Counted from the stretch's first letter, positions 26,252 to 57,215 are shown. The stretch: 64,000 nt of DNA from a virus (IMGVR_UViG_3300043418_000226); one strand, 5' to 3'. Notes: generated by a model from the sequence alone, not told the origin. Translations and numbers: made by a program.

Positions 26252-26315
26252 TACAAATAATATTTGTACATTAGGTAAAATTGTTTTACTTTTACCGACA
26301 TAAAAGATTTACACT

Positions 26316-27065
26316 ATGGTTTTTACATTTTACGAGGTAGGAGGGAAAATACGTGACGAAATTCTTGGATTAGAATCTAAGGATGTTGATTATGTTGCAG
26401 TACCACACGAAACATTATTAGAACAACACACAGAAGCAGAGGATATGTTTAACGTCTTGGTTGATTATTTGACTAGAGAAGGGTTTACCATTTTCCTTAT
26501 AACTGCAAATTGTTTCACCGTTAGGGCAATGTTTCCTAAAGGACATAAGTACACGGGTGTTGCGGACTTCGTAATGGCCCGTAAAGAGATTGGGTATGTC
26601 GAAGGTACAAGAACACCTATCGTTAAACCAGGGTCATTATATGACGATTTAGAACGTAGAGATTTTACCTTAAATGCGTTGGCTAAAGGTGAGGACGGAG
26701 TTATAATTGACTACTTCAATGGACAATTGGATTTAGAGAGAGGAATACTTAGAACTCCATTAGATGCAAACGTAACAATGATGGACGACCCATTGAGAAT
26801 TCTGAGAGCATTACGTTTTTCAATTACTAAAGGGTTTGACATTCATCCGGATATCTACCAAGCAATGGAACAACCAAACATACTTAAGAAATTAGAATTG
26901 ACGGTTAGTGGTGAGAGAATTAGGGAAGAATTAATTAAAATGTTTAAACACGATACTGTCAAAACACTTAGACGTTTGGACGATATTGATGAAAATGTTG
27001 TTAATGGGTTTCATGAAATAATTTTTAATAATGGATTGTGGTTAAAACCAACATTTGAACAATAA
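26316..27065 (+). CDS. cca: tRNA nucleotidyltransferase (CCA-adding) / poly(A) polymerase family
   Basis: VGG.IRD, DVD, DL.RRDFTLNA, DDPLRILRA.RF, ERI.EEL. Confidence 0.9.
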   Translation: MVFTFYEVGGKIRDEILGLESKDVDYVAVPHETLLEQHTEAEDMFNVLVDYLTREGFTIFLITANCFTVRAMFPKGHKYTGVADFVMARKEIGYVEGTRTPIVKPGSLYDDLERRDFTLNALAKGEDGVIIDYFNGQLDLERGILRTPLDANVTMMDDPLRILRALRFSITKGFDIHPDIYQAMEQPNILKKLELTVSGERIREELIKMFKHDTVKTLRRLDDIDENVVNGFHEIIFNNGLWLKPTFEQ

Positions 27066-27260
27066 TGACACAGGACCAATTCAATAGAGCGGAACAAATC
27101 TTAGAACAAATATCTAAGTTGAAAAGATTAAGAGGACGAATACTCAACACACACAAAAAACATAAGAACGATGTGGAGATGATGGAAGTGATGAACGATT
27201 GTTTAAGTGCTGTAGATGTATTAATTGAAATTGACGAAAAAAAATTTAAAGATTTATAAC

Positions 27261-29171
27261 ATGAGTAAATTCACCCCTAGCAAATATCAAAAAGATATTT
27301 TTAATTTTATTAAAAATGGTACAGAGAATGCTATAATTTCTGCCGTTGCTGGTAGTGGTAAGACTACAACTTTAGTTAAAGCACTTGAACAGATTCCGTC
27401 TAATAAGACGGTGCTGTTCTTGGCGTTTAATAAAAGTATTGCCGATGAATTAAAAGTGAGGGTTCCACAAACAAGTAACATTACGGTTAAGACTGTACAT
27501 GGTTTTGGATATTCTGTTTTAAGGAATCAATTCGAAGTGGAAATCGATAATAAAAAATACGGTAAGATGTTGAAGGACATTATATCGTTCCACACAAATA
27601 AAACCAAGTCGTCAATTGAGAAATACAAATTCGATAAAACACATTTAGGTTACATTTCTAAAATGGCATCGGCAGTTAAAACTGATGAAGGTGACAATAA
27701 AGATTTCTTCGGTGACGTTATTAACTTAACTAACTTAGGGAGATTACATTTGATTGACACAGAAATTAAATTAAATGGTATCGAGAAACTAAATGAATTA
27801 GCGAGAATACATTCAGTTGGAAATGAGGATGGTGAGAGTGAAGTTGCATGGTACCTAATCAAATTAGGTTCAACTTATGTAAGCGAAATTGATTACACTG
27901 ACATGGTGTACTTACCAAACGTTCTTCATGTTCTTCAAACTGAAGTTTACGATTTTGTTTTCATCGATGAGTGTCAAGATTTGAATACATGTCAAAGACA
28001 TTTGATGGAGAAAGCAATCAAACCTGAGACAGGTAGATTCATTGCCGTTGGTGACCCTAAACAGGCCATCTATGGTTTCGCAGGTGCCGACTACGAATCA
28101 TTTAAAAAGTTATGTGACATTCCAAACACAATACAATTACCATTGTCGGTTACATATCGTTGTGGTACCAGTATTATTGATATGATTAAACACATTAATC
28201 CATTCATTAAGACGGTCACTAAGGCAAGGGCGGGTGAAGTAATTCATCAGTTCTCATATAAGAATATTGAAGACGGAGACATGGTTCTTTGTCGACAAAC
28301 GTTTCCGGTTGTGTCATTGTGTATTAAACTTTTGAGTGAAGGTAAACGAGCTTACATTGTTGGTTCGGATATTGGTTTATCATTAATAAAAATGATTGGA
28401 GATTGTCAAAGAGTTTCCGAGGAGTTTAATATGACAAATGTATTCTCAAGATTATACAATGAGAAATCAAAGATAATCGAGAAATTAATGAAGAACCATA
28501 ACATCTCAAAATCAGAGGCGTTAGAAGATTCATTTGTTATTATGTACAATGAGAAGATACAAGTAATCGAAGCACTATCAAAAGATATTACTGACCCGAA
28601 TGAGGTCATTGCAAAAATTCATGGTATATTCTCCGACACTAAAAAGGTTGGGATTTGTTTAAGTACAATTCACAAGTCTAAAGGTCTCGAATCTGATAGG
28701 GTATTCATTTTACAACGTGAGTTAATGCCATCAAAGTACGCAACTCTACCATGGCAAATGGAACAGGAAGATAACCTTATGTACGTTGCATACACAAGAG
28801 CAAAGAACACATTAGGTTTCATTAGTGACTACGACGCTTGGAAGACACATAAGTCTGAAAGTGAGAATGTAGTTCCGGTTATGGAAAGTAAACATATCGG
28901 TGCAGTTGGTATGAAAATGAATTTGAAACTTACGGTTTTAAACATTAAGAAGATAGACGGACAGTACGGTGAGACGTTGATATACGAAATGAAAGACGAT
29001 AAGAATAATATCTTCTCAAAGTTCGGTGAGATTAATCCAAGATTCCTAAGTGAAGGTAATGAGAAAGAAGTTAAAGTAGGTTCATCATTAAACTTTTATG
29101 GTATTATATCCGGTCATTCGGAATTCAGAGGAACTAAAAACACTAAAATCGGGAGAATATCTCAACACTAA
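27261..29171 (+). CDS. UvrD/Rep-like SF1 helicase with C-terminal extension
   Basis: AGSGKTT, IDECQD, GDPKQAIY, STIHKSKGLE, YVAYTRA; start at ATG 27261. Confidence 0.9.
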   Translation: MSKFTPSKYQKDIFNFIKNGTENAIISAVAGSGKTTTLVKALEQIPSNKTVLFLAFNKSIADELKVRVPQTSNITVKTVHGFGYSVLRNQFEVEIDNKKYGKMLKDIISFHTNKTKSSIEKYKFDKTHLGYISKMASAVKTDEGDNKDFFGDVINLTNLGRLHLIDTEIKLNGIEKLNELARIHSVGNEDGESEVAWYLIKLGSTYVSEIDYTDMVYLPNVLHVLQTEVYDFVFIDECQDLNTCQRHLMEKAIKPETGRFIAVGDPKQAIYGFAGADYESFKKLCDIPNTIQLPLSVTYRCGTSIIDMIKHINPFIKTVTKARAGEVIHQFSYKNIEDGDMVLCRQTFPVVSLCIKLLSEGKRAYIVGSDIGLSLIKMIGDCQRVSEEFNMTNVFSRLYNEKSKIIEKLMKNHNISKSEALEDSFVIMYNEKIQVIEALSKDITDPNEVIAKIHGIFSDTKKVGICLSTIHKSKGLESDRVFILQRELMPSKYATLPWQMEQEDNLMYVAYTRAKNTLGFISDYDAWKTHKSESENVVPVMESKHIGAVGMKMNLKLTVLNIKKIDGQYGETLIYEMKDDKNNIFSKFGEINPRFLSEGNEKEVKVGSSLNFYGIISGHSEFRGTKNTKIGRISQH

Positions 29172-29174
29172 ATT

Positions 29175-29498
29175 ATGGATAAAGAATATATTTTATGTGC
29201 AGCAATTTGGTGTAAAGAAATTCCATTGAAAAAAGTTATACCTGGAGTTTTACCAGTAAACTGTGACAGAGGAATTGTAGTGACAGGTCACAGACATGGT
29301 CAGTGTATATGGACAATTGGTTGTTTAACTGGTTTACGTGCAGTTACATTTGCTGAAGATGGAATTGGAGAAAATGAACAAGGATTCTTAACAAATAAAA
29401 ATAGATTTGTTAGTAGATCCGAAGGTGCGGACATTGCATTTGCCGCAGGACAAATAGAAAATCAAAAAGAAACGTTATATAGTGAGGATTTATATTAA
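29175..29498 (+). CDS. Conserved phage hypothetical protein
   Basis: ILCAAI, GHRH, QGFLT..RFV.R, LYSEDLY. Confidence 0.6.
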   Translation: MDKEYILCAAIWCKEIPLKKVIPGVLPVNCDRGIVVTGHRHGQCIWTIGCLTGLRAVTFAEDGIGENEQGFLTNKNRFVSRSEGADIAFAAGQIENQKETLYSEDLY

Positions 29499-29530
29499 AT
29501 AATCCCTATATTTGCCTAAATTATATTAAA

Positions 29531-30037
29531 ATGAGTAATAGAACATATAGAATGTACGGGTTAGTCCCTTACAACATTAGTCCAATCCAACAAGGTATCC
29601 AATTCGGACATGCTGTAGTTGAATATGGTTTGCAATTTGGTACCATTCCGGAATACCAAAAATGGGCTAAACAAGACAAAACCTTTATCATCTTGAATGG
29701 TGGTACAACCAACACAAGATTCAATATTGAAGATGGGTTACCATTTGGTTCATTAAATAATCACCTATTGACTCTTGTATTAAATAAGACACAAGTTGCA
29801 ACTTTCTTTGAACCAGATTTAGGTGACCAATTAACTGCCATTGTTTTTTTAGTTGACGATAGAGTTTTTGATAAGAAAAATTGGCCAGATTATGAAGGAC
29901 CATATCTTGACGACATGAATTCAATTCCTGTTACTTCATTCTATAATGAATGGTTGAATAAATTCTCAACTATTAGGTCTGAAGCTGAGAACATTTTATT
30001 TTTGAGAGATTATTTGAAACAATTTAGATTCGCATAA
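29531..30037 (+). CDS. Peptidyl-tRNA hydrolase 2-like protein
   Basis: IQFGHAV, KTFIIL, F.EPDLGDQLTA. Confidence 0.6.
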   Translation: MSNRTYRMYGLVPYNISPIQQGIQFGHAVVEYGLQFGTIPEYQKWAKQDKTFIILNGGTTNTRFNIEDGLPFGSLNNHLLTLVLNKTQVATFFEPDLGDQLTAIVFLVDDRVFDKKNWPDYEGPYLDDMNSIPVTSFYNEWLNKFSTIRSEAENILFLRDYLKQFRFA

Positions 30038-30514
30038 GATGAATTTTTTTAATAAACCAAAACCGATGTCGACACTATCTCGAATAGAGAAGTTAAACGA
30101 ATACAAAAAGAAAAGAAACGTGTACTATTATGAATTGATTAAATCAATCATGGACGGTGCTGTTAGTCAATGTACTAGTGTCGTTCTTTTGGAACCAATT
30201 AAAAATCATTATCCACATTATTCATATAATGGTGTTATGATTTATTATGATGAAGATATACATAAAATGTTATTAGAAGATGATATCGCAGCATATGCGG
30301 ATTCAAGTAATCACATTGTTGTAACGGTGGACCCACAAAGAGTTTCACAATTTAAAAAGAAATAAGATGAGTAATTTAAAAATTAATATTAGATTTCTTA
30401 AATGGCATTTTCAGGTAACAACCGAATGGAAATGTTCATGGACATATAACGATTACCATAAAAATTTGGACCATGGATGGTTCGACATTTGTGAATTTAA
30501 ACCATTTAAATAAG

Positions 30515-31324
30515 ATGAAAGACGCATTAGGAGATAGAATGAAAAATTTCTATGAGGACAGAACAAGATTTAAATTAGCGAGAAGAACTAATACAATAAT
30601 TCGTATTGACGGTAAGGCATTTCACACATATACTAAAGGTTTACCAAGACCATTCGATTCTGGTTTAATTGAGGATATGAATAACACTACTGCTTACCTT
30701 TGTAAAAACATACAAGGTGTTAAGTTTGGTTATGTTCAATCAGATGAGATTAGTTTATTGTTAACAGATTATGATACTCAGGATACGCACTCATGGTTTG
30801 ACAGTAACCTACAGAAAATGTGTAGTGTTGCATCATCTATGGCAACATCAGAGTTTAATCGACTAAGATTGATTAGAAAATGTATGGGTGGAGACATTGA
30901 GGGTTACGTTGATGCAATCGATTTGTCAGAATTCAAAATGGCAGAATTTGATGCACGTGTATTCCAAATACCATCGTCAATTGAAGTGGAAAACTATTTT
31001 ATTTGGAGACAACAAGATGCCACACGTAATAGTATTTCATCAGTCGCTCAAAGTCTATATTCACCTAAACAATTGAATGGTGTTAAGACAGATAAGATGC
31101 AAGAAATGATTTTCCAAAAGGGAATCAATTGGAATGACTATTCGTATCGTGAAAAACGAGGAACCGTTATTACTAAAGTAAAGGAAACAACCACAACACC
31201 ACTTCCTAATATTAGTGGTGAAGTAACGTACACAAGAAACAAATGGAAAGCAGTGGAAACACCAATCTTTTCACAAGATAGAGAATTTATTAAATCAATC
31301 ATGACAAATGAAAGTAATCAGTAA
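30515..31324 (+). CDS. thg1: tRNA(His) guanylyltransferase Thg1-like
   Basis: RIDGKAFH, QSDEIS, FDAR, WRQQDA.RNS; start at ATG 30515. Confidence 0.92.
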   Translation: MKDALGDRMKNFYEDRTRFKLARRTNTIIRIDGKAFHTYTKGLPRPFDSGLIEDMNNTTAYLCKNIQGVKFGYVQSDEISLLLTDYDTQDTHSWFDSNLQKMCSVASSMATSEFNRLRLIRKCMGGDIEGYVDAIDLSEFKMAEFDARVFQIPSSIEVENYFIWRQQDATRNSISSVAQSLYSPKQLNGVKTDKMQEMIFQKGINWNDYSYREKRGTVITKVKETTTTPLPNISGEVTYTRNKWKAVETPIFSQDREFIKSIMTNESNQ

Positions 31325-31532
31325 CACAAAAACAGAAAAATACGAAGAACTTGTAGTAGAAGATACTTGGTTCTTATTTTTTAAACGTAGGTCGACTTAC
31401 AGAAGATATACGGAAAAGGATGGTGCAAAACGAACATCCACATTCCAATATTACGGAGACAACAATTTCCGTGAGTTAGGTATGTTTGAACATTATCTTA
31501 TTGCCGATTTATTCAGAGTAATATTATAAAAG

Positions 31533-32552
31533 ATGGAAAGAAAATTAGCAACACTCAAAACAATTGAAAACATTTTACCAATCGAAGGTGCGGATAAAAT
31601 TGAACTGGCAGTTGTTGGTGGATGGAAAGTAGTCGTAGGTAAAGACGTTGGTCACAAAGTAGGTGACATGGTTGTTTACTGTGAAGTAGATTCATTCTTA
31701 CCTATTAAAGAAGAGTTTGAATTCTTACGTAAGAGTTCTTACAAAAAAATGGGAGACTTAGAAGGATTCCGTTTAAAAACTATTAAACTTCGTGGACAAC
31801 TTTCACAAGGATTAATCTTACCTTTAGTTGAAACGTTCGGTGATTTTTCATGGACAGCATACGAAGGGTTAGATGTTACGGAACGTTTAGGTATTATTAA
31901 ATATGAACCACCAATCCCCGCTGAACTTGCAGGTCAAGTTATCGGAGGGTTCCCATCGTTCATTAGAAAGACAGATGAGGAAAGAATTCAAAACCTATCC
32001 GCTGAGTACGATGAATTAAAAACATTGGAATACTATGTAACTGAAAAGTTAGACGGTACATCTTCAACATTCTATTTTAACAACGGTACCTTTGGTGTAT
32101 GTGGACGTAATTGGGAATATGCCGAAACGGAAACTAACACCTATTGGAAAGTTGCAAGAAAATTGGACTTAGAAGAGAAGATGAAATCATTAGGATATAA
32201 TGTTTGTTTTCAAGGTGAGTTAGTGGGTGAAGGTATCCAAGGTAATCCTTATAAGTTAAAAGGACAAACAGTTTATTTCTACAACGTATTCAACATCGAT
32301 ACACAGGAATATCTTAACTTAAATGATTTTGTATTAACGATGACATCTGCATTTTATAGTATGTTGGAATTTGTACCGGTTATTGTTAGATACTTTAAGT
32401 TACCCGAAACAATTGATGAACTACTAATATTGGCAGACGGTAAGTCGGTATTATGTAACACGACCGACCGAGAAGGTTTGGTTATTAGAACAATTGACCG
32501 TAAACATTCATTCAAAGTAATTAGTAACAATTTTTTATTAAACGAAAAATAA
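31533..32552 (+). CDS. ATP-dependent RNA ligase, Rnl2/DRB0094 family
   Basis: N-terminal OB-like PIEGADKIE..SQGL; TEKLDGTS, GE, EGLV, FKVIS. Confidence 0.9.
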   Translation: MERKLATLKTIENILPIEGADKIELAVVGGWKVVVGKDVGHKVGDMVVYCEVDSFLPIKEEFEFLRKSSYKKMGDLEGFRLKTIKLRGQLSQGLILPLVETFGDFSWTAYEGLDVTERLGIIKYEPPIPAELAGQVIGGFPSFIRKTDEERIQNLSAEYDELKTLEYYVTEKLDGTSSTFYFNNGTFGVCGRNWEYAETETNTYWKVARKLDLEEKMKSLGYNVCFQGELVGEGIQGNPYKLKGQTVYFYNVFNIDTQEYLNLNDFVLTMTSAFYSMLEFVPVIVRYFKLPETIDELLILADGKSVLCNTTDREGLVIRTIDRKHSFKVISNNFLLNEK

Positions 32553-33630
32553 CATGGAAATTTTAAAAGAAGTTCTCGCAGCAATTATTGTTTTAGGTAT
32601 AGTATTGTTTATGGTATCAGGTATAATTCATATTATACTTTATTCACTAAACATTAGAGATAAGATTAGTATCGTAATTAAACTACCAAAACCAAAAAAA
32701 TACCTAACTAAGGTCAATCCAATTTATGAATTGGTTGAGGGATATGGTGATTATCATATTCGTAAATGGGAATTAGGTTACAAAGAATTGGTTGGTGTAC
32801 AATTTCTTTTAATTTTTATACCATACCCAATTGATTTACTTTTTTATCGATATGATATTAAAAATACATTATATCTTTGTGAAATTGAAGACCTTAAAGA
32901 TGTTACACGTCCATTAGAAGAAATCTTTGAGGAGAAATACAAAGTGATTAACGCTGAGGAGTTGGAAAAAGATAGAATTAAAACCGAACGTCAAAATAAA
33001 ATTGACAAATTAAATAAAGTATTCACCGAAAATTACGAATAACATGGAAACATTTAAAACTATTGTTGGTATTATAACATCATTCTTTTTTGGATTTGGG
33101 TTATGGTTTTTGGTTTTTTGGTTTATCACAATGGAACCGAATCTGTTCATTTGGGGAATGTGGACTAAAGTAACCTATTTGATATTATCATTTCTGGCGT
33201 CCGCTGGGTTCTCAAGAGAAGTACTAGAAGATTAATATAGAATATGAAAAAATTAAGTGATAGTGTAATTAATGACTTCGCAATTTTCTATAAGAATAAA
33301 TTGATGAAGGCTCAACGTAATGTTGAAAGGATTAAACGTTTTTATAACGATGATGATTCCTTTGATGTGTTAATTAAGAGAGTCATAGATAAACTCATGG
33401 TATCAACTCAACCATGGATTGTTCTTTATTCATTAATTGACTTAGTGGAAGCCGAAGGTGTAGAGGTTGAACCGTTAGATGGTTTAACTGAAAACTTCCC
33501 AAGTGTTCTAATTGAATATAAAGGATGGACATTTGCCCGAACACATGGTCAAGGAGTTGTTATTTCAATATACGATAAAAATAAAACCCTAATTTACAGG
33601 GATTAATAAACCAAATATAAAGACTAAACT

Positions 33631-34083
33631 ATGTCAACTTACAAACCACCAACGAATATTGCACTTCGTAACAGTGCACGTAAATCAGTTTTCTTAGCGG
33701 GATCCATCGAAATGGGTGTTGCCGAAAATTGGCAAGAAGAGGTTGGAAACTATTTCCATAAACAAGGATGGGATGTATTCAATCCTCGTAGAGAGGAATG
33801 GGATTCATCATGGGAACAGATATTTGAAAACCCACAATTCTATCAACAAGTTAATTGGGAATTAAATGCGTTAGAAAATTCTGACCTTATCGTTTTATAC
33901 TTCGACCCGAATACCAAATCACCAATTTCATTATTAGAACTTGGTTTATTTGCTCGTTCAGGTAAATTAAAAGTCATTTGTCCTGACGGATTTTGGAGAA
34001 AAGGTAACGTTGCGATAACTTGTAACTACTATAATATCCCACTTTACAACAATTTAACAACTTTATTTTTAGATTTAGGTTAA
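33631..34083 (+). CDS. Nucleoside 2-deoxyribosyltransferase-like protein
   Basis: VFLAGSI, FNPRR, QVNWEL, SPISLLELG. Confidence 0.8.
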   Translation: MSTYKPPTNIALRNSARKSVFLAGSIEMGVAENWQEEVGNYFHKQGWDVFNPRREEWDSSWEQIFENPQFYQQVNWELNALENSDLIVLYFDPNTKSPISLLELGLFARSGKLKVICPDGFWRKGNVAITCNYYNIPLYNNLTTLFLDLG

Positions 34084-34139
34084 AAAATTTGTTTGTAAAG
34101 AAATATTCACTACATTTGTCCATCAAAAATTAGGAAACT

Positions 34140-34949
34140 ATGAAAATATCATTAGAAAAAGAACTTAAAAAGAAAGTTCAAGAAAAGAAAAAGGAATTAG
34201 AATTTGACCCAATCAAAGAGGTTAAGTTGTTATTAGCTAATGACGATGCAGAGGATGTAAAAATTCTTAGAAACTTGTCGAGAAACTCACAGTTCAATAG
34301 GATTGAGAGAATTCAAGGGGAGCACATGGAGTTAGAAAAGATTGAAAATGATTTCCATGGTGAAATTTATACTATTGACCAAATTAAAGATTTGGCAATT
34401 AAGTATAAGTTAAGGTTCTTAAGTTCACAATACTATACTGGGACATATGACGTTCAAGTAACGGCAAAAATTAAAGATTTTGCAAGGAAAGTGAATGTGG
34501 AATTAACTGAATATAACCTTAGAGAAAAGTTCTCTATTTTGGCTCCAGAAAAAATGTTTACTTTGACAGATGAAAAATACGTCACAAAGAAACAATTGGA
34601 CCCATTAATGTTTTATAGAGTCGATAGTGAACATTATCGATTAGTTCATAAGTGGGGTGACGATTTTACCATACTTCGTTACTTAACCGGGTTCAGATGG
34701 AAAAGTTATTGGAATTACCATTTCTTTAACACTATGTTATGTCTACCGATTGTTGCAACTATATTAACGTCAATCTTTGGTTTCTATACCGAGGTACCTT
34801 TAGTTATTGTGTTTGTGTTCATGACGTTATTTCTTAGTAATTTGGCTTCTTATTTGTTTTTCGGTTGGAATAAATCAGATGATGGAGATATTATTCAAAG
34901 TTTCTTCACACCGAACAATTGGAACTCAACGAAAAAGATTAGAAATTAA
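34140..34949 (+). CDS. Hypothetical protein with C-terminal membrane helices
   Basis: DPLMF..LVHKWG followed by two hydrophobic segments. Confidence 0.55.
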   Translation: MKISLEKELKKKVQEKKKELEFDPIKEVKLLLANDDAEDVKILRNLSRNSQFNRIERIQGEHMELEKIENDFHGEIYTIDQIKDLAIKYKLRFLSSQYYTGTYDVQVTAKIKDFARKVNVELTEYNLREKFSILAPEKMFTLTDEKYVTKKQLDPLMFYRVDSEHYRLVHKWGDDFTILRYLTGFRWKSYWNYHFFNTMLCLPIVATILTSIFGFYTEVPLVIVFVFMTLFLSNLASYLFFGWNKSDDGDIIQSFFTPNNWNSTKKIRN

Positions 34950-35294
34950 TTTTAATAATTCACAATATGAAAAAGTTATTAGTACCTGGTTTTTTTATCC
35001 TATCAATTTTATTAACTGCGTTTGTTACAACTGCTGTGGCAACAGTTAAACTTGAGGACGGTGAAGTTGAATTCAGAACATTGAGTCACACTTTAAGTGA
35101 TACTGAAATTAATGAAGCGAACACCAAAAAATTGTACACCTCTAATATTGAACTTAAAGAGGGTTATGAGAATGTTCGAAAAGATGAAGTTAAGATTACC
35201 AAACATAAAAAAATTATTGGTTGGGAATCAAAAGTGGACACATTAAAAACATATGTAACCCAAGAATATTGTGGTTGCAATTAAAAAATAAAAG

Positions 35295-35756
35295 ATGCCA
35301 TTAAAAGAAAAAATAAATGCAGATTTCATTATTGCAATGAAAGCAAAGGCCTTAGTTGTTAAGTCAGCATTGAGTAGTATCAAAGCGAAAATAACTGAAG
35401 GTGAAAAGTTAAATGGTAACACTGAACTATCTGACCAAGAAGTTCTTAAAGTCATTACCACGGCAATTAAACAACGTAAACAATCATATGATGCGTTCAT
35501 GTTGGGGAACCGTGAAGACTTGGCAATTAATGAACAAGAAGAAATGAAAGTTCTTGAGATTTATTTACCAAAACAAATGACCGAGGAAGAAATTGAATCG
35601 GCAGTTACAACAATCGTACAAGAAATGTCTGCAATCGGTCTTGTTAATCCACAAGCACTTATTGGTAAAACAATTGGTGAGTTTAATAAACAATACCAAG
35701 GTATGGCCGACATCGCCGTAGTTAAATCAATCGTAAACAATTTAATTAATCAATAA
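35295..35756 (+). CDS. GatB/YqeY domain protein
   Basis: AMKAK, KQRKQS, REDLA..E..E..YLPKQM. Confidence 0.9.
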   Translation: MPLKEKINADFIIAMKAKALVVKSALSSIKAKITEGEKLNGNTELSDQEVLKVITTAIKQRKQSYDAFMLGNREDLAINEQEEMKVLEIYLPKQMTEEEIESAVTTIVQEMSAIGLVNPQALIGKTIGEFNKQYQGMADIAVVKSIVNNLINQ

Positions 35757-35984
35757 TATGGAAACTATCGGATTACTATTGGCAATCGTAACATTACCAT
35801 TATCACTTTTCTTCACCATTGCAAACGTAACGGGAGGAAATGGATTAAATAAATTCTTTGCAAGATTATTAGGTATTGGTGGGGTTGTCCTTTCAATTAT
35901 TTACATACTAAAATATAACAATTTAATATAACTGATTGATACAAACTTTAGATTTATATCCATATATTTATAATAAAAGATATT

Positions 35985-36485
35985 ATGGAACTAGTAAGAA
36001 AAAAAGTTTGCTCAACTTGTAAAGTTGAAAAAGAAATAACCGAATTTTCAAAAGACAAAACCGAAAAAGATGGTTACACCTATAGTTGTAAAGTTTGTAG
36101 AAATAAACGATATAATGATTGGGCGAAAGAGAATAAAGACAAAGTTCGTGAAAGGAACGCTAAAAGAGCTGAAGAAAGACAAGCGTACTATCAAAGTGAA
36201 CGAGGGATAGAATCGTCGAGACGTGCTCACCTTAAGAGAAAATATAATATGACGTTAGAAGAATATGATGTCATATTAGAAAGTCAAAATGGGGTATGTG
36301 ACATTTGTAAAGAACCTGAAAGTTATGGTAGAGCATCTTTTTTGGCTGTTGACCATTGTCATAATGACGAAACAATTAGAGGGTTACTTTGTAATAATTG
36401 TAACAGGGCAATTGGTTTACTTAAAGACAACATTGAAGTTCTTGAAAACGCAGTTAAATATTTGAAAAAACATAAACAAAAATAA
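35985..36485 (+). CDS. Endonuclease VII-like HNH homing endonuclease
   Basis: CxxC pairs; Q.G.C.IC, LAVDHCH, RGLLC..CN. Confidence 0.88.
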   Translation: MELVRKKVCSTCKVEKEITEFSKDKTEKDGYTYSCKVCRNKRYNDWAKENKDKVRERNAKRAEERQAYYQSERGIESSRRAHLKRKYNMTLEEYDVILESQNGVCDICKEPESYGRASFLAVDHCHNDETIRGLLCNNCNRAIGLLKDNIEVLENAVKYLKKHKQK

Positions 36486-36488
36486 ATT

Positions 36489-38081
36489 ATGAATCCACTA
36501 TTATTAACCGATGGTTATAAAACATCACACCACCAAATGTACCCTCCTGGTACTAATTTAGTTTATTCAAACTTCACACCTCGTAGTAACAAGTACGCAC
36601 CGAAAGGTTGTGAACAGGTTGTTTCGTTTGGTCAACAAATGGTTATGGTTCAAATCCACGAAGCATTCAAAAATGAATTCTTCTCTAAACCAAAAGAAGA
36701 AGTTTGTGGTGAAATGAAACGTGAGTTATCGATGTACTTAGGTACTGACTACGATGTTACTCACTTCGAGAAATTACACGACCTTGGTTACTTACCAATT
36801 CACGTTAAAGGTATTGAAGAAGGGACATTGGTTCCAATGAAAGTACCTGTGTTAACAATATACAATACACATCCTAATTTCTATTGGGTAACAAATTACT
36901 TGGAGACAATCCTTTCTAACTTGTTATGGAAACCGATGACATCAGCAACTATTGCTCACCAATATCGTAAGGTGTTGACTAAATGGCAAGAGAAGACCGA
37001 CACAGAGAAAAGTTGGTTCATCGATTGGCAAGGACACGACTTCTCAATGAGAGGTATGGATTCAGTTGAAGCTGTAATCAGTTCAGGTCTTGGTCACTTA
37101 ACATCATTCTCAGGTTCAGATTCGTTACCAACAATCTACGGAGCAAGAAAGTATTATGGTGAACAAGGTGCCGTTTGTGGTTCAGTTAACGCAACTGAAC
37201 ACTCAGTAATGTGTGCGGGTGGTGCCGACGATGAGGTTGGTACATTCAAACGTTTATTGGAAACATATCCAACGGGAATTCTATCTGTTGTTTCAGACAC
37301 TTGGGACTTGTGGAAGGTATGTACCGAACACGTTGTAACATTGAAAGAAGAGATCTTATCACGTGACGGTAAGTTAGTTATCAGACCTGATAGTGGTGAC
37401 CCAGTTGATATTTTATGTGGTAAACAAATTCCAAAATTTGAAAACACAAAAGAAATTTTAGATTTTTATTCCCCATTCTCAGAAACCGAATTACATTTCC
37501 CGTTATTTTATTTAGAAGATAAGTTGTATAAAATACATTTATCAAAAGAAGACAATGGTAGAATTGAATGGAACTTATATACTATTGAACCATCAGATAA
37601 AGGTGTAATCGAATTACTTTGGGATGCATTTGGCGGAACAATCAACGAACAAGGTTACAAAGTTCTTGACTCACACATCGGAGCAATCTATGGAGATTCA
37701 ATCACAATCGATAGAGCCAATGAGATTTGTAGAAGATTAGAAGCAAAAGGATTCGCATCTACAAACGTTGTATTAGGTATTGGTTCATTCACATATCAAT
37801 TCAACACAAGAGATACATTTGGTTTCGCAATGAAAGCAACTTATGTTGAACTAGAAGGTGTTGGTAGAGAAATCTTTAAAGACCCAATCACCGATGATGG
37901 TACTAAGAAATCTGCAACGGGTTTGTTACGTGTAGATAAAAATTTAAACGGTAACATTACATTATTTGATAAGGTTAATTGGGACGATGAGAATATGGGT
38001 TTATTAAAAACCATATACAAAGATGGTGAGTTCCAAAACCAAACGACCTTGACTGAAATCAGAGAACGTTTAAAACAATAA
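36489..38081 (+). CDS. nadV: Nicotinamide phosphoribosyltransferase-like (NAMPT/Namat)
   Basis: TDGYK.SH, HDFS.RG, ATEHSVM, SVVSDTWD, IRPDSGDP, YGDSI, RDTFGFAMK. Confidence 0.92.
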   Translation: MNPLLLTDGYKTSHHQMYPPGTNLVYSNFTPRSNKYAPKGCEQVVSFGQQMVMVQIHEAFKNEFFSKPKEEVCGEMKRELSMYLGTDYDVTHFEKLHDLGYLPIHVKGIEEGTLVPMKVPVLTIYNTHPNFYWVTNYLETILSNLLWKPMTSATIAHQYRKVLTKWQEKTDTEKSWFIDWQGHDFSMRGMDSVEAVISSGLGHLTSFSGSDSLPTIYGARKYYGEQGAVCGSVNATEHSVMCAGGADDEVGTFKRLLETYPTGILSVVSDTWDLWKVCTEHVVTLKEEILSRDGKLVIRPDSGDPVDILCGKQIPKFENTKEILDFYSPFSETELHFPLFYLEDKLYKIHLSKEDNGRIEWNLYTIEPSDKGVIELLWDAFGGTINEQGYKVLDSHIGAIYGDSITIDRANEICRRLEAKGFASTNVVLGIGSFTYQFNTRDTFGFAMKATYVELEGVGREIFKDPITDDGTKKSATGLLRVDKNLNGNITLFDKVNWDDENMGLLKTIYKDGEFQNQTTLTEIRERLKQ

Positions 38082-40250: not shown

Positions 40251-41114
40251 ATGACTTTAGACTTAGTTAATCAAGAAAAATCAGATATCAAATACAAGAT
40301 ATCATCGTTCCCCGATGGTCAACAAACTGTTGACTTAACAGACACAATAAAACAATACAATGACCCAATTTATTTGAAGTCACGGTTAAATTCATTCAAA
40401 GACCTTGAATTAATTATTTGTGCAACTCAAGCAATAAGAAATCAGATACCTAATAAAGAGATTAAATTATATGTTCCATATTTTTTAGGTTCACGTAGTG
40501 ATAGAAAATTTCAAGACGGTGGTGTCAATTATTTGAAACAAGTAATCTGTCCCATCATTAATAGTCAAAACTACAGTAGTGTAACCGTAATGGACCCACA
40601 TAGTGATGTACTTGAGGCTTGTCTTAACAATTACAATAAAGAAAATAACTTTAAGTTAGTTAAGTTCGCCCTTAGTAATATTGACAACAAAGACGGTGCA
40701 CAAGATAGAATTTGTTTGGTTAGTCCTGACGCAGGAGCATACAAAAAAATCTTCGATGTTGCCAAGTTCTATGGTATTAGTAATATCATTACGGCAACAA
40801 AAGTAAGAGACATGAAGACTGGAAACATTCTTCACACTGAGATTCCCGTACTTGACCAACACAATGATTTAACATATGTTATCGTTGATGATATTTGTGA
40901 TGGTGGTAGAACCTTTGTTGAACTTGCTAAAGTAATCAAAGCTGGTAGACCAACCGCTAAAGTATATCTTGTGGTAACTCATGGTATCTTCAGTGCTGGG
41001 TTTAAAGTATTGAATGAATATCTTGATGGTGTTTACTGTACGAACAGTTACAGAGATGTTGCTGACGATGAGTACGAAGTTAAAACGAATGTTAAACAAT
41101 TAAACGTACTATAA
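40251..41114 (+). CDS. prs: Ribose-phosphate pyrophosphokinase-like (Prs/Adps)
   Basis: FPDG, PY...RSDR, DPHS, SPDAGA, VDDICDGGRTF, THGIFS. Confidence 0.9.
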   Translation: MTLDLVNQEKSDIKYKISSFPDGQQTVDLTDTIKQYNDPIYLKSRLNSFKDLELIICATQAIRNQIPNKEIKLYVPYFLGSRSDRKFQDGGVNYLKQVICPIINSQNYSSVTVMDPHSDVLEACLNNYNKENNFKLVKFALSNIDNKDGAQDRICLVSPDAGAYKKIFDVAKFYGISNIITATKVRDMKTGNILHTEIPVLDQHNDLTYVIVDDICDGGRTFVELAKVIKAGRPTAKVYLVVTHGIFSAGFKVLNEYLDGVYCTNSYRDVADDEYEVKTNVKQLNVL

Positions 41115-52329: not shown

Positions 52330-54983
52330 TTTTAAAATAGTAAAGATATGGTAACGAGTTTTGGAGACATATTCCTAATTGGAATGTTATCCGGGTTTTG
52401 TGTAGGGGTAACCCTTGTTGTGATTTTGTGGTCTAATTCTAAAAGTAAATAAGATGGGATTATTAGGTGCCAGAGGTTGTATGTACTGTGAGGGTGACGT
52501 GTGTACTAAAGAATGTATTGAAGATATACATTCTCCACTTCATGAGTTTACTCAAAAAAAATTAATGGGTGTACATAATCCAGTTGTTCGTGAACATATT
52601 TCCAATGGTATTCGTTATGGTTCCGAATGGGAAAGAAGTAGATTGTTCACCAAGGAAGATATGTTAAAGGCAGTTAAGTTTGGTGAACTATATCAAACAG
52701 AAGGCTCAAAGTCTTTATTTGAAAAAAGAGGAACAACTCCTTCAGAAGTATTAAACAAATGGTTGGATAGTTTTAAAAAGAAATAATGAACATCAGACAA
52801 TACAAGAAGAAGTTTGCAATCTGTAAAGATGACAACGGTAAAACCATATACAAGGGTGATATTGTAAAGATATGGATGGCCATGGAAACCAATACAGGTC
52901 ACGTATCAAGAGTCTACCACAATATGTTAGATGGTGCATTTGTATTGGGTTCACCGGCACATGCATTTATGAATGATGGTAAACAAACACATCGACCTTT
53001 ACGTGATTATTTAAATCAGAAACCAATACCCGTTCACGAATGGGGTGTTGACGAACCGACGTATCGAAAAGGATATTGTATTAAAGTTAGGTCGTTTAAT
53101 AAACCAATTAAAGGAAAGTAAGTTATGATATCAAGAGAAGAACATTTAAAACAAGTTAATCGTTTTCACGATATGTTGGAGAAGGTTGATAATGGAATTC
53201 AAGAAAAGATTAAATCTGGTGAGAACGATGGGTATGAATTATATCACAAGTACTTTATTTTGTCCGCAAAGATTTGGCCACTTGTGGATGATAATATTGA
53301 AAGAATTAAAAATAGATTAGACGATTTTGAAGAATTTAATGAGTAAACAAACCTACTTTAGAGTATGTCATAAAGATACGTTACAAGGTCTTTGGTACGC
53401 ATTTAATGGTGAGTTCACCGGACTTATCCACGACGAGTTTAGTTTCTGTACTAACACCGAATTGAAAATGGATTTCGACCCCGAGATTGTGGGTTGGGTG
53501 TCTGCAGTTGAAACGTTGGATTTACTATGGAATTGGTTTAGTAAAGAAGATGTTATTAAATTACAAGAACATGGGTGGTTCGTTCATGAATATGAGTCTG
53601 AGGATATTAAATTCTACGAAAGATTCCAACATACTGTAATCAAACAGGAAACGTCAAAACCAATATTCATTTATAGTATTGGTCCGAACAATATTCTATA
53701 TAAAACTAAAACAAGTAAAGATGAATAAACTAACTTTAGAATATTATGACTGGTTTGATATCCAAAAAGAAATCTGTAAAGAAATGGGTATTGAAGAACA
53801 ATATTTCAGAGACTACCATAAATTAATTGGTGGCGAATATAAAGACCTATGGCATATTTGGTTGGAGTATTTTGAATCCATTCCGAATAATGATACAATT
53901 GTGTTTAACGATTTGGGTGAGGAAATGTCTAGTAAAATAGAGTGGATGACGATAAAAGGTGACGATTGGGCAATTCCATTTGTGGAAGCACTTTATAGGG
54001 TTTGGGATAAATTTGATATTGGATATATAAACTATAGTTGGTAATGGAACAAATACACAGACAAATATTTTCTTATCTACCTTACAGAGTGAAGTGTGAG
54101 ATATTAAATTACAAATCAGATTACGTCGGGTTAAGATACTCAACACTGAATGGGTTCTATGATATTATCGGTGAAACTCATTTCACTTATGATGGTGGAT
54201 CTACCGGTAAATCTATCAGGGACATGAAAATAATCCTAAGACCTTTTTCCGATATAACAAAGGAGATTGAAGTTAACGGTGAGAAGTTTGTTCCGTCAGA
54301 AAAAATTGGAATTCATTTATTTGATTATGATTTTATGTACATTTACAGAAAAGAAACGAATGGAATTCCTTTTTGGGTTGTTCAGAAACTACTCGAATGG
54401 AACATTGACGTGTACGGACTAATAGAATCAGATAACGCAATTAACATCAACACATTATGAAACAGTATTTAAAATATTTTCACCCTTTAGGGTTATTGAT
54501 TGTAGTATTAGTTATGTCGGTAACTTGGGCGTTCTATGATTTATATAAAAGTAATTTAAAATTTAAATATATTGTCATCGCCAATCGAACAATGTATAAG
54601 ACTATTAAGATTGATAGTATATCAAATGGTAATGCTTATTTTAAAGATAGACACGGTGACAATACAATGGTTAGTGGTTCATATGTAATTAAAGAAATAA
54701 ATAAAGATGGTTATGAGTAAAGAAAATGTTATTTTAGTTAAAGTCGATAAGTCATGTGACATGGCGGAAGTGTGGTTAAATGACGAATGTATTATGGAGG
54801 GTAATTTTTGGGACTTCCATCCAGGTTGTCACGGTATAAATGAGTATGGTGACTTTAAAGGTTATAGTGACTTAGCAAGAGCAATCGCATTAAGTTTACA
54901 TAAAGAAGGTGAGAGTTCCAAGATTGTTAATGAAGAATATAGTTACGAATAAACCTAATTGTTATAATTTTTTTCACCATTAG

Positions 54984-55014
54984 TTTGGTATATTAAAAAT
55001 TAGTTGTATATTTG
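54984..55014 (+). promoter_or_regulatory. Bacteroidota-type promoter heading the non-coding array
   Basis: TTTG 54984-87, 19 nt, TATATTTG 55007-14. Confidence 0.75.
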
Positions 55015-55179
55015 TACAAGAATTAAAAAACTACTTGAGTAGGTGGGAATGGTCAATCAACAACCCATTGAAGTTTCAGGTAATATATATTAAACGGGAC
55101 AGGCGAGCCTAGAATATAGTAATCCGCAAGTTAATGGTTTTTTAGGGGATTGAACCGGTTTTTTACATTAGCGAAATTT

Positions 55180-55355
55180 GGTCAGGTGGCGGAAAGGTAG
55201 ACGATTCCCATCAACACACATAGGGAGATTTAGATTGTTGTGTGTGCAGATTGTAGCACGTATTATAGCGTAAGTGACTGAAACTAAGGTCGTAGTATAA
55301 TCGTAGTGTATAGGTAAAGCAATCACTCACACAGGTTCGAATCCTGTCCTGACCA
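55180..55355 (+). ncRNA. tRNA-like element 1 (176 nt, large insert)
   Basis: GGTCAGG/CCTGACC acceptor, TGGCGGAAAGGTAGACG D arm, ACAGG-TTCGAAT-CCTGT T arm. Confidence 0.75.
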
Positions 55356-55394
55356 CCGAAGGTTGGTAACTCCTATAGGAATAAAAGTTACGTT

Positions 55395-55516
55395 AGTCAG
55401 GTGGCGGAATTGGTGTACGCAATGGTATGTTAAATGAGGGATTTCTCCTAAACCGAACCCTAATTAGGGCTAACCGTTGGAGTTTAAAACTACAGGTTCG
55501 AATCCTGTCTTGACTG
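55395..55516 (+). ncRNA. tRNA-like element 2 (122 nt, insert in anticodon loop)
   Basis: AGTCAGG/CTTGACT acceptor, Leu-type D arm, ATGGT/ACCGT stem around ~46 nt, variable hairpin, T arm. Confidence 0.75.
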
Positions 55517-55962
55517 CAAAAGGTTAAACATTGAATACCTTTGTAATAACTAAAGAACGGTAATCGTGAAACCAAGTAAGGGTAGAGGTGTTCATATAAG
55601 TTTTACATAAAGATACTATCAGTAATGGTGGTTGTGTTGTTCCCTTGAGAAAGGAATAAGTAGTAGTGACAAGAATGATTGAAATAACATCATATAGTAA
55701 CCAACACAAATGAGTTCTCAGCAAGTGGTTAAAAACAGACAGGTAGATGACTCAGATACTGATTCTGATAATGTTCCGATAGTCGTCCATTTAACTACGT
55801 GACCCTACTCTTATATGGGCGTAAATATAAAGAAACAGTCATATAAGAAAGAGGGTCTAAAACAATTTACTAATGCTCGCTGTTAGGTTGAACGTGGAAT
55901 AAAAAGGGTTTATATTAAGTTCAACAAACCAGAAACCCCGAAAGACCAAGGTTAGTAAAGGA

Positions 55963-56072
55963 AGTCAGGTGGCGGAATTGGCTATCGCACCTCACCTACT
56001 ATGGGGAGTATTGTTTCGACACAATTAATCAGCTGAGCGGCAAGCATACAGGTTCGAGTCCTGTCCTGACTA
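55963..56072 (+). ncRNA. tRNA-like element 3 (110 nt, expanded variable region)
   Basis: AGTCAGG/CCTGACT; CCTCA-cctacta-TGGGG arm lacking U33 and R37; T arm. Confidence 0.75.
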
Positions 56073-56136
56073 CAAGGGTTATGAGCAACGTGCCCCATTA
56101 ATTGCACAATGTTGACTGATGGAAAGACATCAAAAC
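56073..56136 (+). repeat. 64-nt structured spacer, copy A
   Basis: 60/64 identical to 56444-56507. Confidence 0.9.
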
Positions 56137-56193
56137 AGTCAGGTGGAAAGGCGGTTTCCTTTAGGTAAGCAGGTTCGAGTCCTGTCCTGACTA
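56137..56193 (+). ncRNA. tRNA-like element 4 (57 nt, minimal)
   Basis: Acceptor and T arm with a single short hairpin between. Confidence 0.7.
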
Positions 56194-56364
56194 CAAGACG
56201 GCCTGATTCCGGTGCACAGGATAGGGAACGAAGCTCTTGAATGACGGGTCTGTTATCTTAACATTATTTGACTTCGGTTTCAATAATGGATAACAGATTG
56301 GCGCGGAGGTCAACTAAATCGTTAGTTAGGATGGTGTTACAGCGTCGAGTAGACTGTAACAAAT

Positions 56365-56443
56365 GGTCAGGTGGGTGTAATGAGGGACGGTGCCCGAATC
56401 CAGTCAAATGGTTACTTATCCGGTTCGAGTCCGGCCCTGACTA
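56365..56443 (+). ncRNA. tRNA-like element 5 (79 nt, degenerate D/anticodon arms)
   Basis: GGTCAGG/CCTGACT; CCGG-TTCGAGT-CCGG T arm. Confidence 0.65.
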
Positions 56444-56507
56444 CAAGGGTTATGAACAACGTGTCCCCTTAATTACACAATGTTGACTGATGGAAAGACA
56501 TCAAAAC
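56444..56507 (+). repeat. 64-nt structured spacer, copy B
   Basis: Direct repeat of 56073-56136. Confidence 0.9.
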
Positions 56508-56676
56508 GGTTAGGTGGCGGAATGGTAGACGCACAAAGAGTAATGTCTTTGTTTGATTCAGCTCATTACTGAATCCCTCATATCGAGGTACGTGAGAGCA
56601 ATGTAATAGTGTACATAAAATCATTGAGGCAACAGAAGTAGATGTGTTGATACAGGTTCGAATCCTGTCCTGACTA
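56508..56676 (+). ncRNA. tRNA-like element 6 (169 nt, multi-hairpin insert)
   Basis: GGTTAGG/CCTGACT, TGGCGGAATGGTAGACGC D arm, CAAAG/CTTTG stem, T arm. Confidence 0.75.
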
Positions 56677-56803
56677 CGATTGCCAACACGTATGGTCAAT
56701 GTGTTAAAATTGTCGTGTAACAAGACCCGTAAAAAAATGAGGCAACGACTGGAAGGAAAGTCCACAACTAAACCTGCTTACACTTTGGAATGTAAAGTGA
56801 ATC

Positions 56804-56894
56804 GGTTAGCTTGGATAGAAGGTCGGTTCGATTCCGATGGAAGGTATTGGTACGGGTCGCCCCCTGGAGAGAGGTTCGAATCCTCTCCTAACCA
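56804..56894 (+). ncRNA. tRNA-like element 7 (degenerate, two T-loop hairpins)
   Basis: GGTTAG/CTAACC; AGAGG-TTCGAAT-CCTCT and internal TCGG-TTCGATT-CCGA. Confidence 0.55.
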
Positions 56895-56900
56895 CAAATT

Positions 56901-56935
56901 AAAATGTCATAATGAAAATTTATGACATTTTTTTT
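56901..56935 (+). terminator. Intrinsic terminator closing the array
   Basis: AAAATGTCATAA / TTATGACATTTT plus T-tract. Confidence 0.75.
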
Positions 56936-57215
56936 GTTTTAAAGAAAATTATTTTCTACATTTGTACGATATAAATTAACTTACTCATGGATAAAACATT
57001 TAAAGAACAAATTAAAGAAGAGGTTGACTCAATATGTGAGGAACATAATTTGAAACAACCAATAATAGTTCCTGCGGCCGCTAAGATTATTATGGAATAT
57101 CGTGGTTTGGATAGAGCAATCGAATTATTCGAAGGTGCCCTTAATCAAGAATCCGATTTATTTAAACGTTCAGCGTACAGAGCAACATTAGATGTAACCT
57201 TAAAAAGGGAATAAG

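Follow-up and report, generated by a model that had tools for sequence, protein, structure and literature searches.

A non-coding phage island of seven tRNA-shaped elements that combine a constant acceptor stem and T arm with different inserts

The sequence analyzed here is a 64,000-nucleotide (nt) stretch of IMGVR_UViG_3300043418_000226, referred to below as the window, and it comes from an uncultured large phage whose host was probably a member of the Bacteroidota. All genes of the 64-kb window lie on the plus strand and its G+C content is about 33%. A megablast comparison with GenBank phages returned no relative of the window sequence, and the sole match in a distant blastn comparison with these phages was that of 90 nt of a leader module (S2b, described below) to Flavobacterium phage immuto. 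Our subject is a 1.9-kb island at positions 54984-56935, which consists of seven transfer RNA (tRNA)-shaped elements, E1 to E7, all on the plus strand and 57-176 nt long, with other non-coding modules between them. The elements share a constant part, the chassis, in which the acceptor stem and the T arm are always present, and each chassis carries a different insert. A scan of the plus strand found no credible open reading frame (ORF) in the island, the longest frames being TTG-started ones that cross the elements. A preliminary description of this locus had already listed the lack of a coding frame, the seven elements, the covariation of their stems and the lack of both a canonical anticodon loop and an encoded CCA, and the analysis bears out each of these points.

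The T-loop motif GGTTCRANTCC occurs ten times in the window against 0.2 expected matches, and eight of the ten lie in the island, within 1.6 kb of its sequence. All seven elements possess a 7-bp acceptor stem and a 5-bp T stem closed by a UUCRANU loop, which is a feature of canonical tRNAs, and both the acceptor stem and the T arm are recovered in 7/7 unconstrained minimum free energy (MFE) folds. The acceptor stem is paired at 7/7 positions in E1-E6 and at 6/7 in E7; the T stem is paired at 5/5 positions in six elements and at 4/5 in E5. Differences among the elements are compensatory: in the acceptor stem, pair 1-72 is A-U, G-C or G.U and pair 4-69 is C-G, U.G or U-A; in the T stem, pair 50-64 is C-G or G-C and pair 51-63 is A-U or C-G. 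Pair 3-70 is U-A in all seven. The discriminator base is A in six elements and G in E2. The trailers of E1 to E7 read CCG, CAA, CAA, CAA, CAA, CGA and CAA, that is, a C that is never followed by CA, and CCA is encoded in none.

Between the two strands of the acceptor stem, the elements diverge. U8-G9 and a D arm of the bacterial tRNA-Leu type, GCGGAAU(U)GGUAGACGC, are kept in E1, E2, E3 and E6, and other hairpins replace this arm in E4, E5 and E7. E1 (55180-55355, 176 nt) starts with a G1-C72 pair and has the Leu-type D arm, C48, A73 and the trailer CCG. E2 (55395-55516, 122 nt) has the Leu-type D arm, G73 and a computed fold, and E3 (55963-56072, 110 nt) has the Leu-type D arm and three insert hairpins. 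In the minimal element E4 (56137-56193, 57 nt), one small hairpin takes the place of the D and anticodon arms, and its MFE z-score is -1.8. E5 (56365-56443, 79 nt) lacks the Leu-type D arm and has a CCGG/CCGG T stem. E6 (56508-56676, 169 nt) combines the Leu-type D arm with five insert hairpins. E7 (56804-56894, 91 nt) has an AGAGG/CCUCU T stem and a nested T-arm-like hairpin in its insert (GGUCGGUUCGAUUCCGAU).

None of the elements has a canonical anticodon arm (5-bp stem, 7-nt loop, U33 and R37). The anticodon-type loop of E3, CCUACUA, has neither U33 nor R37, that of E6 is 6 or 8 nt long, and E4 and E5 have no such arm. Tools for tRNA detection had been expected to return pseudo or undetermined calls; ARAGORN returned no call at all in the whole window, and Rfam tRNA (RF00005, gathering threshold of 29 bits) accepts E3 (41.9 bits) and E2 (38 bits) alone. 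The two alignments contain insertions of 38-42 nt, which fall in the variable region of E3 and in the anticodon loop region of E2 (42 nt). E1 (21.3 bits) and E7 (17.4 bits) are below the threshold, and E4, E5 and E6 give no match. The Rfam scan of the region, read down to E<=10, yielded tRNA and noise as the only known RNA families. The GOLLD (RF02032) and ROOL (RF03087) RNAs have no Rfam match in the window. A transfer-messenger RNA (tmRNA, RF00023) identity was rejected, as the elements have U-A in place of G3.U70 and there is no Rfam match at E<=10.

The chassis pattern AGTCAGG...ACAGGTTCGAATCCTGT-CCTGACT-A-C is found in at least 120 IMG/VR phage contigs, often several times per contig and mixed with ordinary tRNAs. 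We fetched the family with a 22-nt pattern that covers the greater part of both the T arm and the 3' acceptor strand, and extracted 161 distinct chassis elements of 53-300 nt from the matched loci. The family was defined operationally by an RGUYAGG/CCUGAYY acceptor, U8 and G9, an RCAGG-UUCGARU-CCUGU T arm, A73, and C74 that is not followed by CA. E1-E4 and E6 conform to this definition, with E2 deviating by G73, and E5 and E7 deviate by their covarying T stems; E7 deviates also by a covarying acceptor, which is of the standard kind in its homologues. A search of 185,579 species genomes gave 27 pattern matches, all of them in contigs of metagenome-assembled genomes and mostly in Bacteroidota bins; 25 of these consist of a chassis with an insert, no canonical cellular donor tRNA is among the 27, and no isolate genome of the set contains the chassis. 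The 401 sampled Bacteroidota genomes contain only matches of T-arm size, such as that in tRNA-Arg(CCU), and no relative of the island's inserts or spacers, and the full chassis is absent from cultured GenBank phages. All its occurrences were thus in phage-type DNA, with Bacteroidota as the likely hosts. A full-text literature search found no description of the family; a 2026 preprint on bacterial tRNA mimics deals with other motifs and not with this chassis.

Several positions outside the search motif are conserved in the sample of 161: A1 in 93%, U8 in 98%, A14 in 88%, A15 in 92%, G18 in 89% and U48 in 83%. The genes are flanked by U-1 (84%), A73 (92%) and C74 (99%), followed by A or U and then by A. 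The 258 canonical tRNAs of the same loci have U-1 in 73% and C74 in 92%, followed by A (64%) or U (26%) and then by A (75%). As the flanks of the chassis genes are those of real tRNAs in the same phages, we infer cleavage by RNase P and 3'-end processing, and the match suggests that chassis genes undergo the same maturation as these tRNAs. Two members carry canonical bodies on the chassis acceptor and T arm, namely a 72-nt tRNA-Lys(UUU) at locus L050 and a 72-nt tRNA-Ile(UAU) at L084:4958. The body of the latter is identical to that of an ordinary tRNA-Ile (L011:8-81) and its acceptor is AGUCAGG. Such composite sequences indicate that chassis genes have recombined with genuine tRNA genes.

Four of the inserts belong to families that recur in other phages. 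Relatives of E3 were found in four loci (88% identity in L039, then L053, L024 and L092), with double compensatory changes in 9/27 pairs that support all three insert hairpins. The E5 family (L134, L097, L110 and L077) shows double changes in 4/20 pairs, the T stem included. E6 is 94% identical over 175 nt to an element of L166, the homology stops at the element borders, the flanks are unrelated, and the substitutions in stems mostly preserve pairing by wobble. E7 had been taken to be degenerate, and this turned out to be wrong, as it belongs to a conserved subfamily with members in L018 and L073 (83-85% identity) that have an AGTCAG.../CCTGACT acceptor. Double changes affect 3/24 pairs of this family, and the window copy differs from the other two by compensatory acceptor changes at pairs 1-72 and 4-69. 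Nested T-arm-like hairpins such as that of E7 occur in 7-9 of the 161 family inserts against 0.12 in shuffled sequences. A 53-nt minimal element that resembles E4 was found in L049. Judged by these comparisons, the inserts are under structural selection. Since they form conserved families with compensatory changes, plain decay is ruled out. The proposal that the top half of the tRNA is kept and the decoding half is swapped is thus supported by comparison, and the swapped half is itself conserved.

What had been called spacers are conserved modules themselves, and one of them is an independent gene for a long non-coding RNA (lncRNA). The non-coding leader module M0 (55026-55179) is 81-84% identical in L065, L033 and L048 and always stands 5' of a chassis element. 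The homologous stretch has a sharp start at 55026 and runs into the 5' constant part of the next chassis element, where it stops; this element has a different insert in each case. Indels in the relatives break every ORF of M0, and its MFE z-score is about 0. Spacer S1 (55356-55394, 39 nt), together with the 5' constant part of E2, is 81% identical in L030. S3 (56073-56136, 64 nt) has a counterpart with 86% identity in L025, located 3' of a canonical tRNA. S5 (56444-56507, 64 nt) is a second copy of S3, and the two are part of a 96-nt direct repeat (56051-56146 and 56422-56517, 92% identical) that spans from the T loop to the acceptor of the next element. They contain ATG-started frames of six codons, MSNVPH* and MNNVSP*, which share the same TAA end and are too short to judge. 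S4 (56194-56364, 171 nt) is 87-90% identical in L059, the homology beginning at the 3' end of E4, and S6 (56677-56803, 127 nt) is partly common to L073 (69-87%).

Two sequences can be aligned block by block with positions 55517-55880, namely L039 and, in the crAss-like Cellulophaga phage phi14:2, the gp006-gp010 intergenic region. The shared blocks comprise a promoter block, a module that we call X, a downstream UUCUCA loop and a long hairpin. Going by these blocks, S2 (55550-55880) is not a mere spacer but an lncRNA gene in its own right, of the phi14:2 type, with module X at 55634-55731 and the long hairpin at 55801-55857. The arms of the hairpin are GACCCUACUC...GAGGGU, and S2 contains the GACCCUACUCUUAU...AUAAGAAAGAGGGU hairpin typical of this lncRNA. 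Module X consists of a GUGUUG...CAACAC helix that encloses a UUCC-CUUGAGAAA-GGAA hairpin. It is present in ten loci, which include L018:2483-2590, L090, L069, L029, L012, L053, L087, L039 and phi14:2 (L165:1440-1530), and it is not in Rfam. In L018, both loops have changed together, from UGAGAA/UUCUCA to UGAUAA/UUAUCA. This one double change supports a loop-loop pairing and suggests a kissing-loop pseudoknot. Often, the element immediately 3' of module X is a tRNA or a chassis RNA.

For phi14:2, Drobysheva et al. report early and stable transcription of two long intergenic regions, at a level above that of most protein genes. In the genome of this phage (L165, KC821624), the two highly expressed intergenic regions are 2905-3590 and 4031-4500, and they correspond to the S2 homologue and to a phage tmRNA, for which ARAGORN gives the tag GSSVQKLAMVA* and Rfam a score of 46 bits, just below the threshold. 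The small minus-strand ORFs gp007-gp009, gp013 and gp014 of phi14:2 are probably spurious.

Another leader module, S2b (55848-55962), stands directly 5' of E3 and is also found in L006 and L080. It is 77% identical to positions 20097-20185 of Flavobacterium phage immuto, where it too directly precedes an odd tRNA-like gene. Such odd genes were seen in two cultured Bacteroidota phages, immuto (L164, MW353175; 20097-20331) and Tenacibaculum phage pT24 (L157, LC168164; 191.5-192.5 kb), where they are annotated as tRNA-Cys, tRNA-Pro or tRNA-Undet and have non-canonical anticodon regions. These two phages are possible laboratory models.

The nearest relative differs from module to module, each being in another contig, and most homology tracts begin or end in the constant parts of the chassis. 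Because the tracts are bounded by constant chassis ends, the modules have been shuffled like cassettes. The genes that flank the island (54707-54952 and 56987-57214) have eight relatives in contigs of 80-434 kb, mostly those of jumbo phages of at least 300 kb. Near the eight relatives there is no T-loop motif within 6 kb and no synteny beyond the single gene, and hence no orthologous array with which to compare the island. The relatives in which the chassis pattern was counted have 0, 0, 1, 4 and 4 matches, and three of the four matches in genome G009 form one island. With relatives so patchy and synteny absent, we regard the island as an accessory mosaic locus.

Candidate signals for transcription were found on the plus strand at both ends of the island and inside it. 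A putative promoter, P1 (54985-55014), reads TTGGTA-16-TATATT and includes a Bacteroidota-type -7 box, TATATTTG, at 55007-55014; it comes from a consensus scan and is a pattern match only. The homology of M0 to other contigs starts 12 nt 3' of P1, at 55026. In several intergenic regions of the window, a TAnnTTTG box stands 19-33 nt 5' of a start codon; overall, the octamer is not enriched. A second putative promoter, P2 (55519-55547), follows E2 and consists of the block GGTTAAACATTGAATACCTTTGTAA with a -7 box, TACCTTTG, at 55536-55543; the same block heads the homologous non-coding regions of phi14:2 and L039. A hairpin at 56905-56936, AUGUCAUAA-UGAAAAU-UUAUGACAU followed by U7, was read from the sequence as resembling an intrinsic terminator and is too A+U-rich for the G+C rule of the terminator scan. 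Of the boundaries given in the preliminary description, the upstream promoter-like site and the terminator-like hairpin were found again, and the notion of a single promoter-like site gives way to two.

Taken together, these results are best explained by an island of phage non-coding RNAs, in which processed, stable RNAs that do not decode are built on a constant, tRNA-Leu-derived chassis and interleaved with other RNA modules. We put the probability of this explanation at roughly 0.6. Transcription would run rightward from the two Bacteroidota-type promoters to the one terminator. The constant chassis corresponds to the part of a tRNA that is read by RNase P, 3'-end enzymes, CCA-adding enzymes and EF-Tu. 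With its AGUCAGG/CCUGACU acceptor, U8, usually a Leu-type D arm, the ACAGG-UUCGAAU-CCUGU T arm, A73 and C74, the chassis would display the features recognized by the RNase P, the 3'-end trimming enzymes and the CCA-adding enzyme of the host, and different folded inserts would replace the anticodon and variable regions. Long transcripts would then be cut at each chassis end, which would yield stable tRNA-shaped RNAs that display their inserts, and the same cuts would free the RNAs in between, acting as punctuation. The nearly identical ends may double as homology for the exchange of modules between phages. Of the three functions offered in the preliminary description, scaffolded stable small RNAs fit the sequences best; punctuation that releases the spacers would also fit, because inserts and spacers are both conserved, shuffled modules.

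A number of observations weigh against this explanation. The MFE z-scores are significant neither for the elements nor for the spacers, which is usual for tRNAs. For three inserts, those of E1, E2 and E4, the searches turned up no relatives, and the 80-90% identity of the spacers may reflect recent transfer and not selection. As the D arm is absent in 3/7 elements and E2 has G73, the seven RNAs may not all meet the same biochemical fate. Because the family was fetched with an exact 3' motif, the conservation seen in the T arm and the 3' acceptor strand is partly a matter of ascertainment. Finally, the nearly invariant acceptor sequence exceeds the needs of enzymes that read shape, and it would call for an additional cause such as a sequence-specific reader, gene conversion or recent spread.

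The positions kept in the chassis can be compared with what is known about leucyl-tRNA synthetase (LeuRS). The determinants of the Escherichia coli enzyme are A73, A14, A15-U48, G18G19 and the contacts of the D loop with the T loop, and a tRNA-Leu that lacks both the anticodon and the variable arms is still charged (PMC9976931). Judged by sequence, the full set of these determinants is present in E3 and E6, E1 has C48, E2 has G73 and E4, E5 and E7 have no D arm; these are the rules of E. coli and may not fit the LeuRS of Bacteroidota. G73 is an antideterminant in E. coli tRNA-Ser (PMC9976931). It is conceivable, albeit unlikely in its full form, that we are dealing with a natural "RNA cassette system", in which an invariant, CCA-tailed and possibly leucylated tRNA-Leu chassis serves as a universal carrier of hundreds of RNA effector domains that are traded by recombination and used for host takeover or counter-defense. 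A tRNA-Leu chassis could have been chosen since LeuRS, RNase P, the CCA enzyme and EF-Tu ignore the anticodon, and such a system would be a functional analogue of an integron or of a synthetic tRNA-scaffold library.

Other explanations assign the activity or the conservation to a different part of these elements. The chassis itself could be the active part, in which case the elements would be abundant non-decoding tRNA mimics that occupy the readers of the acceptor and T arms, such as LeuRS, EF-Tu, repair enzymes, or host toxins and immune nucleases that attack the 3' end or the acceptor stem of tRNAs, and the inserts would mainly serve to block decoding. The acceptor stem, A73 and C74 are indeed conserved in sequence beyond the needs of processing, the kept positions coincide with the published LeuRS determinants (PMC9976931), and genes for tRNA-end repair are found in the window and at ten other chassis loci. 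A pure decoy, however, would not need insert families with compensatory changes that recur across phages, 3/7 elements have no D arm, and Thg1-like genes are absent from four of the five large chassis-bearing contigs checked. Furthermore, no mimic of an anticodon loop is kept, which makes anticodon nucleases, named earlier as possible targets of decoys, unlikely ones. We regard an active chassis as a minority prospect, which is nevertheless worth keeping in mind. Doubtful to a greater degree is the idea that the constant ends are mainly portable recombination sites, about 25 nt of identical sequence used for module swaps during co-infection, and that the tRNA shape is a leftover. Such ends would resemble PeSL, the repeated promoter stem-loops that shuffle early genes in T4-like phages. 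This would account for the homology tracts that begin and end in constant parts, the 96-nt internal duplication from T loop to next acceptor, the different nearest relative of each module, the canonical tRNA bodies with a chassis acceptor (tRNA-Ile in L084 and tRNA-Lys in L050) and the patchy copy number among related jumbo phages, but it leaves unexplained the compensatory pairing of the stems, the kept U48, A14, A15 and G18, and the tRNA-like flanks. Recombination at the ends is, moreover, compatible with the scaffold explanation and not really exclusive of it.

The elements might also be real decoding tRNAs, from which the inserts are removed as introns or in which unusual loops read codons. 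Oversized tRNA genes have been interpreted as intron-bearing in the Lak megaphages of Prevotella (PMC6784885), E2 and E3 pass the Rfam tRNA threshold, and a few family members do have canonical anticodon arms, for instance the 72-nt tRNA-Lys(UUU) of L050. Nevertheless, ARAGORN run with the -i option gave incoherent calls in the window, namely Thr(agt), Ser(act) across two elements and Phe(aaa). The 161 family members likewise gave scattered anticodons with intron positions at 31-41 and few Leu calls despite the Leu body. An anticodon arm would not fit into E4 (57 nt) or E5, group I introns would be longer than the inserts, and there is no Rfam intron match. Decoding is hence very improbable. 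Still less credence can be given to decaying, functionless tRNA-Leu pseudogenes. Degenerate copies do occur in phage tRNA clusters and the MFE z-scores are unremarkable, yet pairing of the acceptor and T stems has been retained throughout the seven elements and some 160 relatives, compensatory changes are seen in the inserts, and the same architecture and flank signals recur widely, in at least 120 contigs.

Stable RNAs with a similar layout are known from other phages, and they have been compared with the island by their sequences. The genome of T5 contains RNA1 and RNA2 (misc_RNA T5s03, 30501-30644, and T5s06, 32959-33083), which are annotated as "tRNA-like stable RNA with unknown functions" and, like the chassis RNAs, are located in a phage tRNA cluster or non-coding RNA island. 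RNA1 resembles a chassis RNA by its terminal stem, which is acceptor-like, its Leu-type D arm UGCCGGAAUUGGUAGACGG, its T arm and an insert of about 75 nt in place of the anticodon and variable arms, and RNA2 resembles E7 in having a T arm GCAGGUUCGAAUCCUGU and a nested T-arm-like hairpin. However, neither is homologous to the AGUCAGG chassis beyond generic tRNA motifs, both are single genes and not one chassis reused with hundreds of inserts, and the host is Escherichia coli and not a member of the Bacteroidota. The rnaC (species 1 RNA, 139 nt) and rnaD RNAs of T4 are also situated among tRNA genes and are long-known stable RNAs. In rnaC, a T arm CCGGGUUCGAAUCCCGG adjoins the terminal stem and the interior is large and structured, but it lacks a D arm and has an imperfect terminal stem, rnaD is without a T arm, and there is no family with exchangeable inserts. 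On direct comparison, rnaC, RNA1 and RNA2 thus have the architecture of a terminal stem with an adjacent T arm and a non-tRNA interior. These RNAs and the highly and stably expressed S2 homologue of phi14:2 provide an experimental precedent.

Less direct parallels exist outside this group. In the engineered tRNA scaffolds of Ponchon and Dardel (see PMC3753655), an insert also takes the place of the anticodon arm and the body is meant to provide processing and protection from nucleases. These scaffolds are man-made, whereas the design of the island is seemingly natural and used at scale, its processing and stability being predictions. Plant mitochondrial t-elements and tRNA punctuation (see PMC1920247) similarly involve tRNA-like RNase P and RNase Z sites that set the ends of neighboring RNAs; there they are signals for messenger RNAs, whereas in the island the tRNA-like units and the intervening RNAs are all non-coding and conserved. 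Like the chassis RNAs, tmRNA and the bacterial Y RNA YrlA join a tRNA-like domain to a non-tRNA domain and do not decode through an anticodon (PMC4201824). Unlike them, tmRNA needs G3.U70, a tag ORF and pseudoknots, and YrlA has a permuted topology in which both ends lie in the Ro-binding stem (PMC4201824); no Ro gene was found among the window proteins scanned. The Lak megaphages (PMC6784885) are comparable in being huge phages of a Bacteroidota host, with over-long, unclassifiable tRNA genes and highly expressed intergenic regions. Their "enigmatic introns", which were compared by description, were interpreted as lying in otherwise typable tRNAs (PMC6784885), whereas no coherent tRNA results when the inserts of the island are removed; they may offer a glimpse of a related phenomenon. 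The stable tRNA-like RNA as a kind is therefore already known, and what is new here is the single invariant chassis, the scale of its use, the insert families and the cassette-like mosaicism.

For about half a century, no function has been known for the stable tRNA-like RNAs of T4 and T5, and the island belongs to a much larger lineage of the same kind. If processing takes place as proposed, phages would have arrived at the tRNA scaffold well ahead of RNA engineers, and the inserts would make up an existing library of natural RNA domains, presumably with affinity for proteins or RNAs, that could be screened, for example, for anti-defense activity. Current annotation misses or miscalls such genes, as ARAGORN reports nothing or random anticodons and comparable genes of GenBank phages are labeled tRNA-Cys, tRNA-Pro or tRNA-Undet.

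The window also contains an RNA-repair toolkit at 23076-36485, all on the plus strand: a DEDD exonuclease (23076-23843), a metallophosphoesterase (25074-25760), a HAD_SAK_2 protein (25757-26251), a short nucleotidyltransferase of the CCA-adding type (249 amino acids; 26316-27065), a helicase (27225-29171), a Thg1-like protein (30473-31324), a DRB0094-type RNA ligase (31533-32552) and YqeY (35295-35756). Genes for NAMPT (36489-38081) and a PRPP-synthetase-like protein (40251-41114) adjoin it on the same strand. In ten other loci, homologues of the toolkit and chassis elements are a few kb apart at most; a Thg1-like gene is found in one of the five large chassis-bearing contigs checked. Genes for tRNA repair have been interpreted as answers to attacks of the host on the translation apparatus or tRNA (PMC7824862). 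By analogy, a role of the island in tRNA conflict, including that of a decoy for acceptor-end effectors, is plausible, and the company of RNA repair, nicotinamide adenine dinucleotide salvage and tRNA islands points to host takeover or counter-defense.

GOLLD and ROOL RNAs are known residents of phage tRNA islands. At two loci that carry M0 homologues, L048 (4476-4887, minus strand) and L033 (1477-1884, minus strand), a GOLLD RNA is located on the same strand about 0.9 kb 3' of the M0 homologue and a chassis RNA, and L048 additionally has a tmRNA (2717-3112, plus strand).

Two genes of the window, at 2184-2906 and 22083-22922, resemble homing endonuclease genes of the NUMOD1/I-HmuI-like and GIY-YIG types. 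Relatives of the NUMOD1/I-HmuI-like gene are found near chassis elements in L002, L037, L077 and L111; in T4, segB lies inside the tRNA cluster.

For the insert of E1, the viral scan found no relative of the whole, and the metagenome scan gave a 25-nt identity alone, in an unrelated context. Positions 55212-55236 match exactly at L167:977-1001 and L168:1820-1844, which are two otherwise unrelated metagenome contigs, and the chance expectation for the searched 22-mer was about 0.03 matches.

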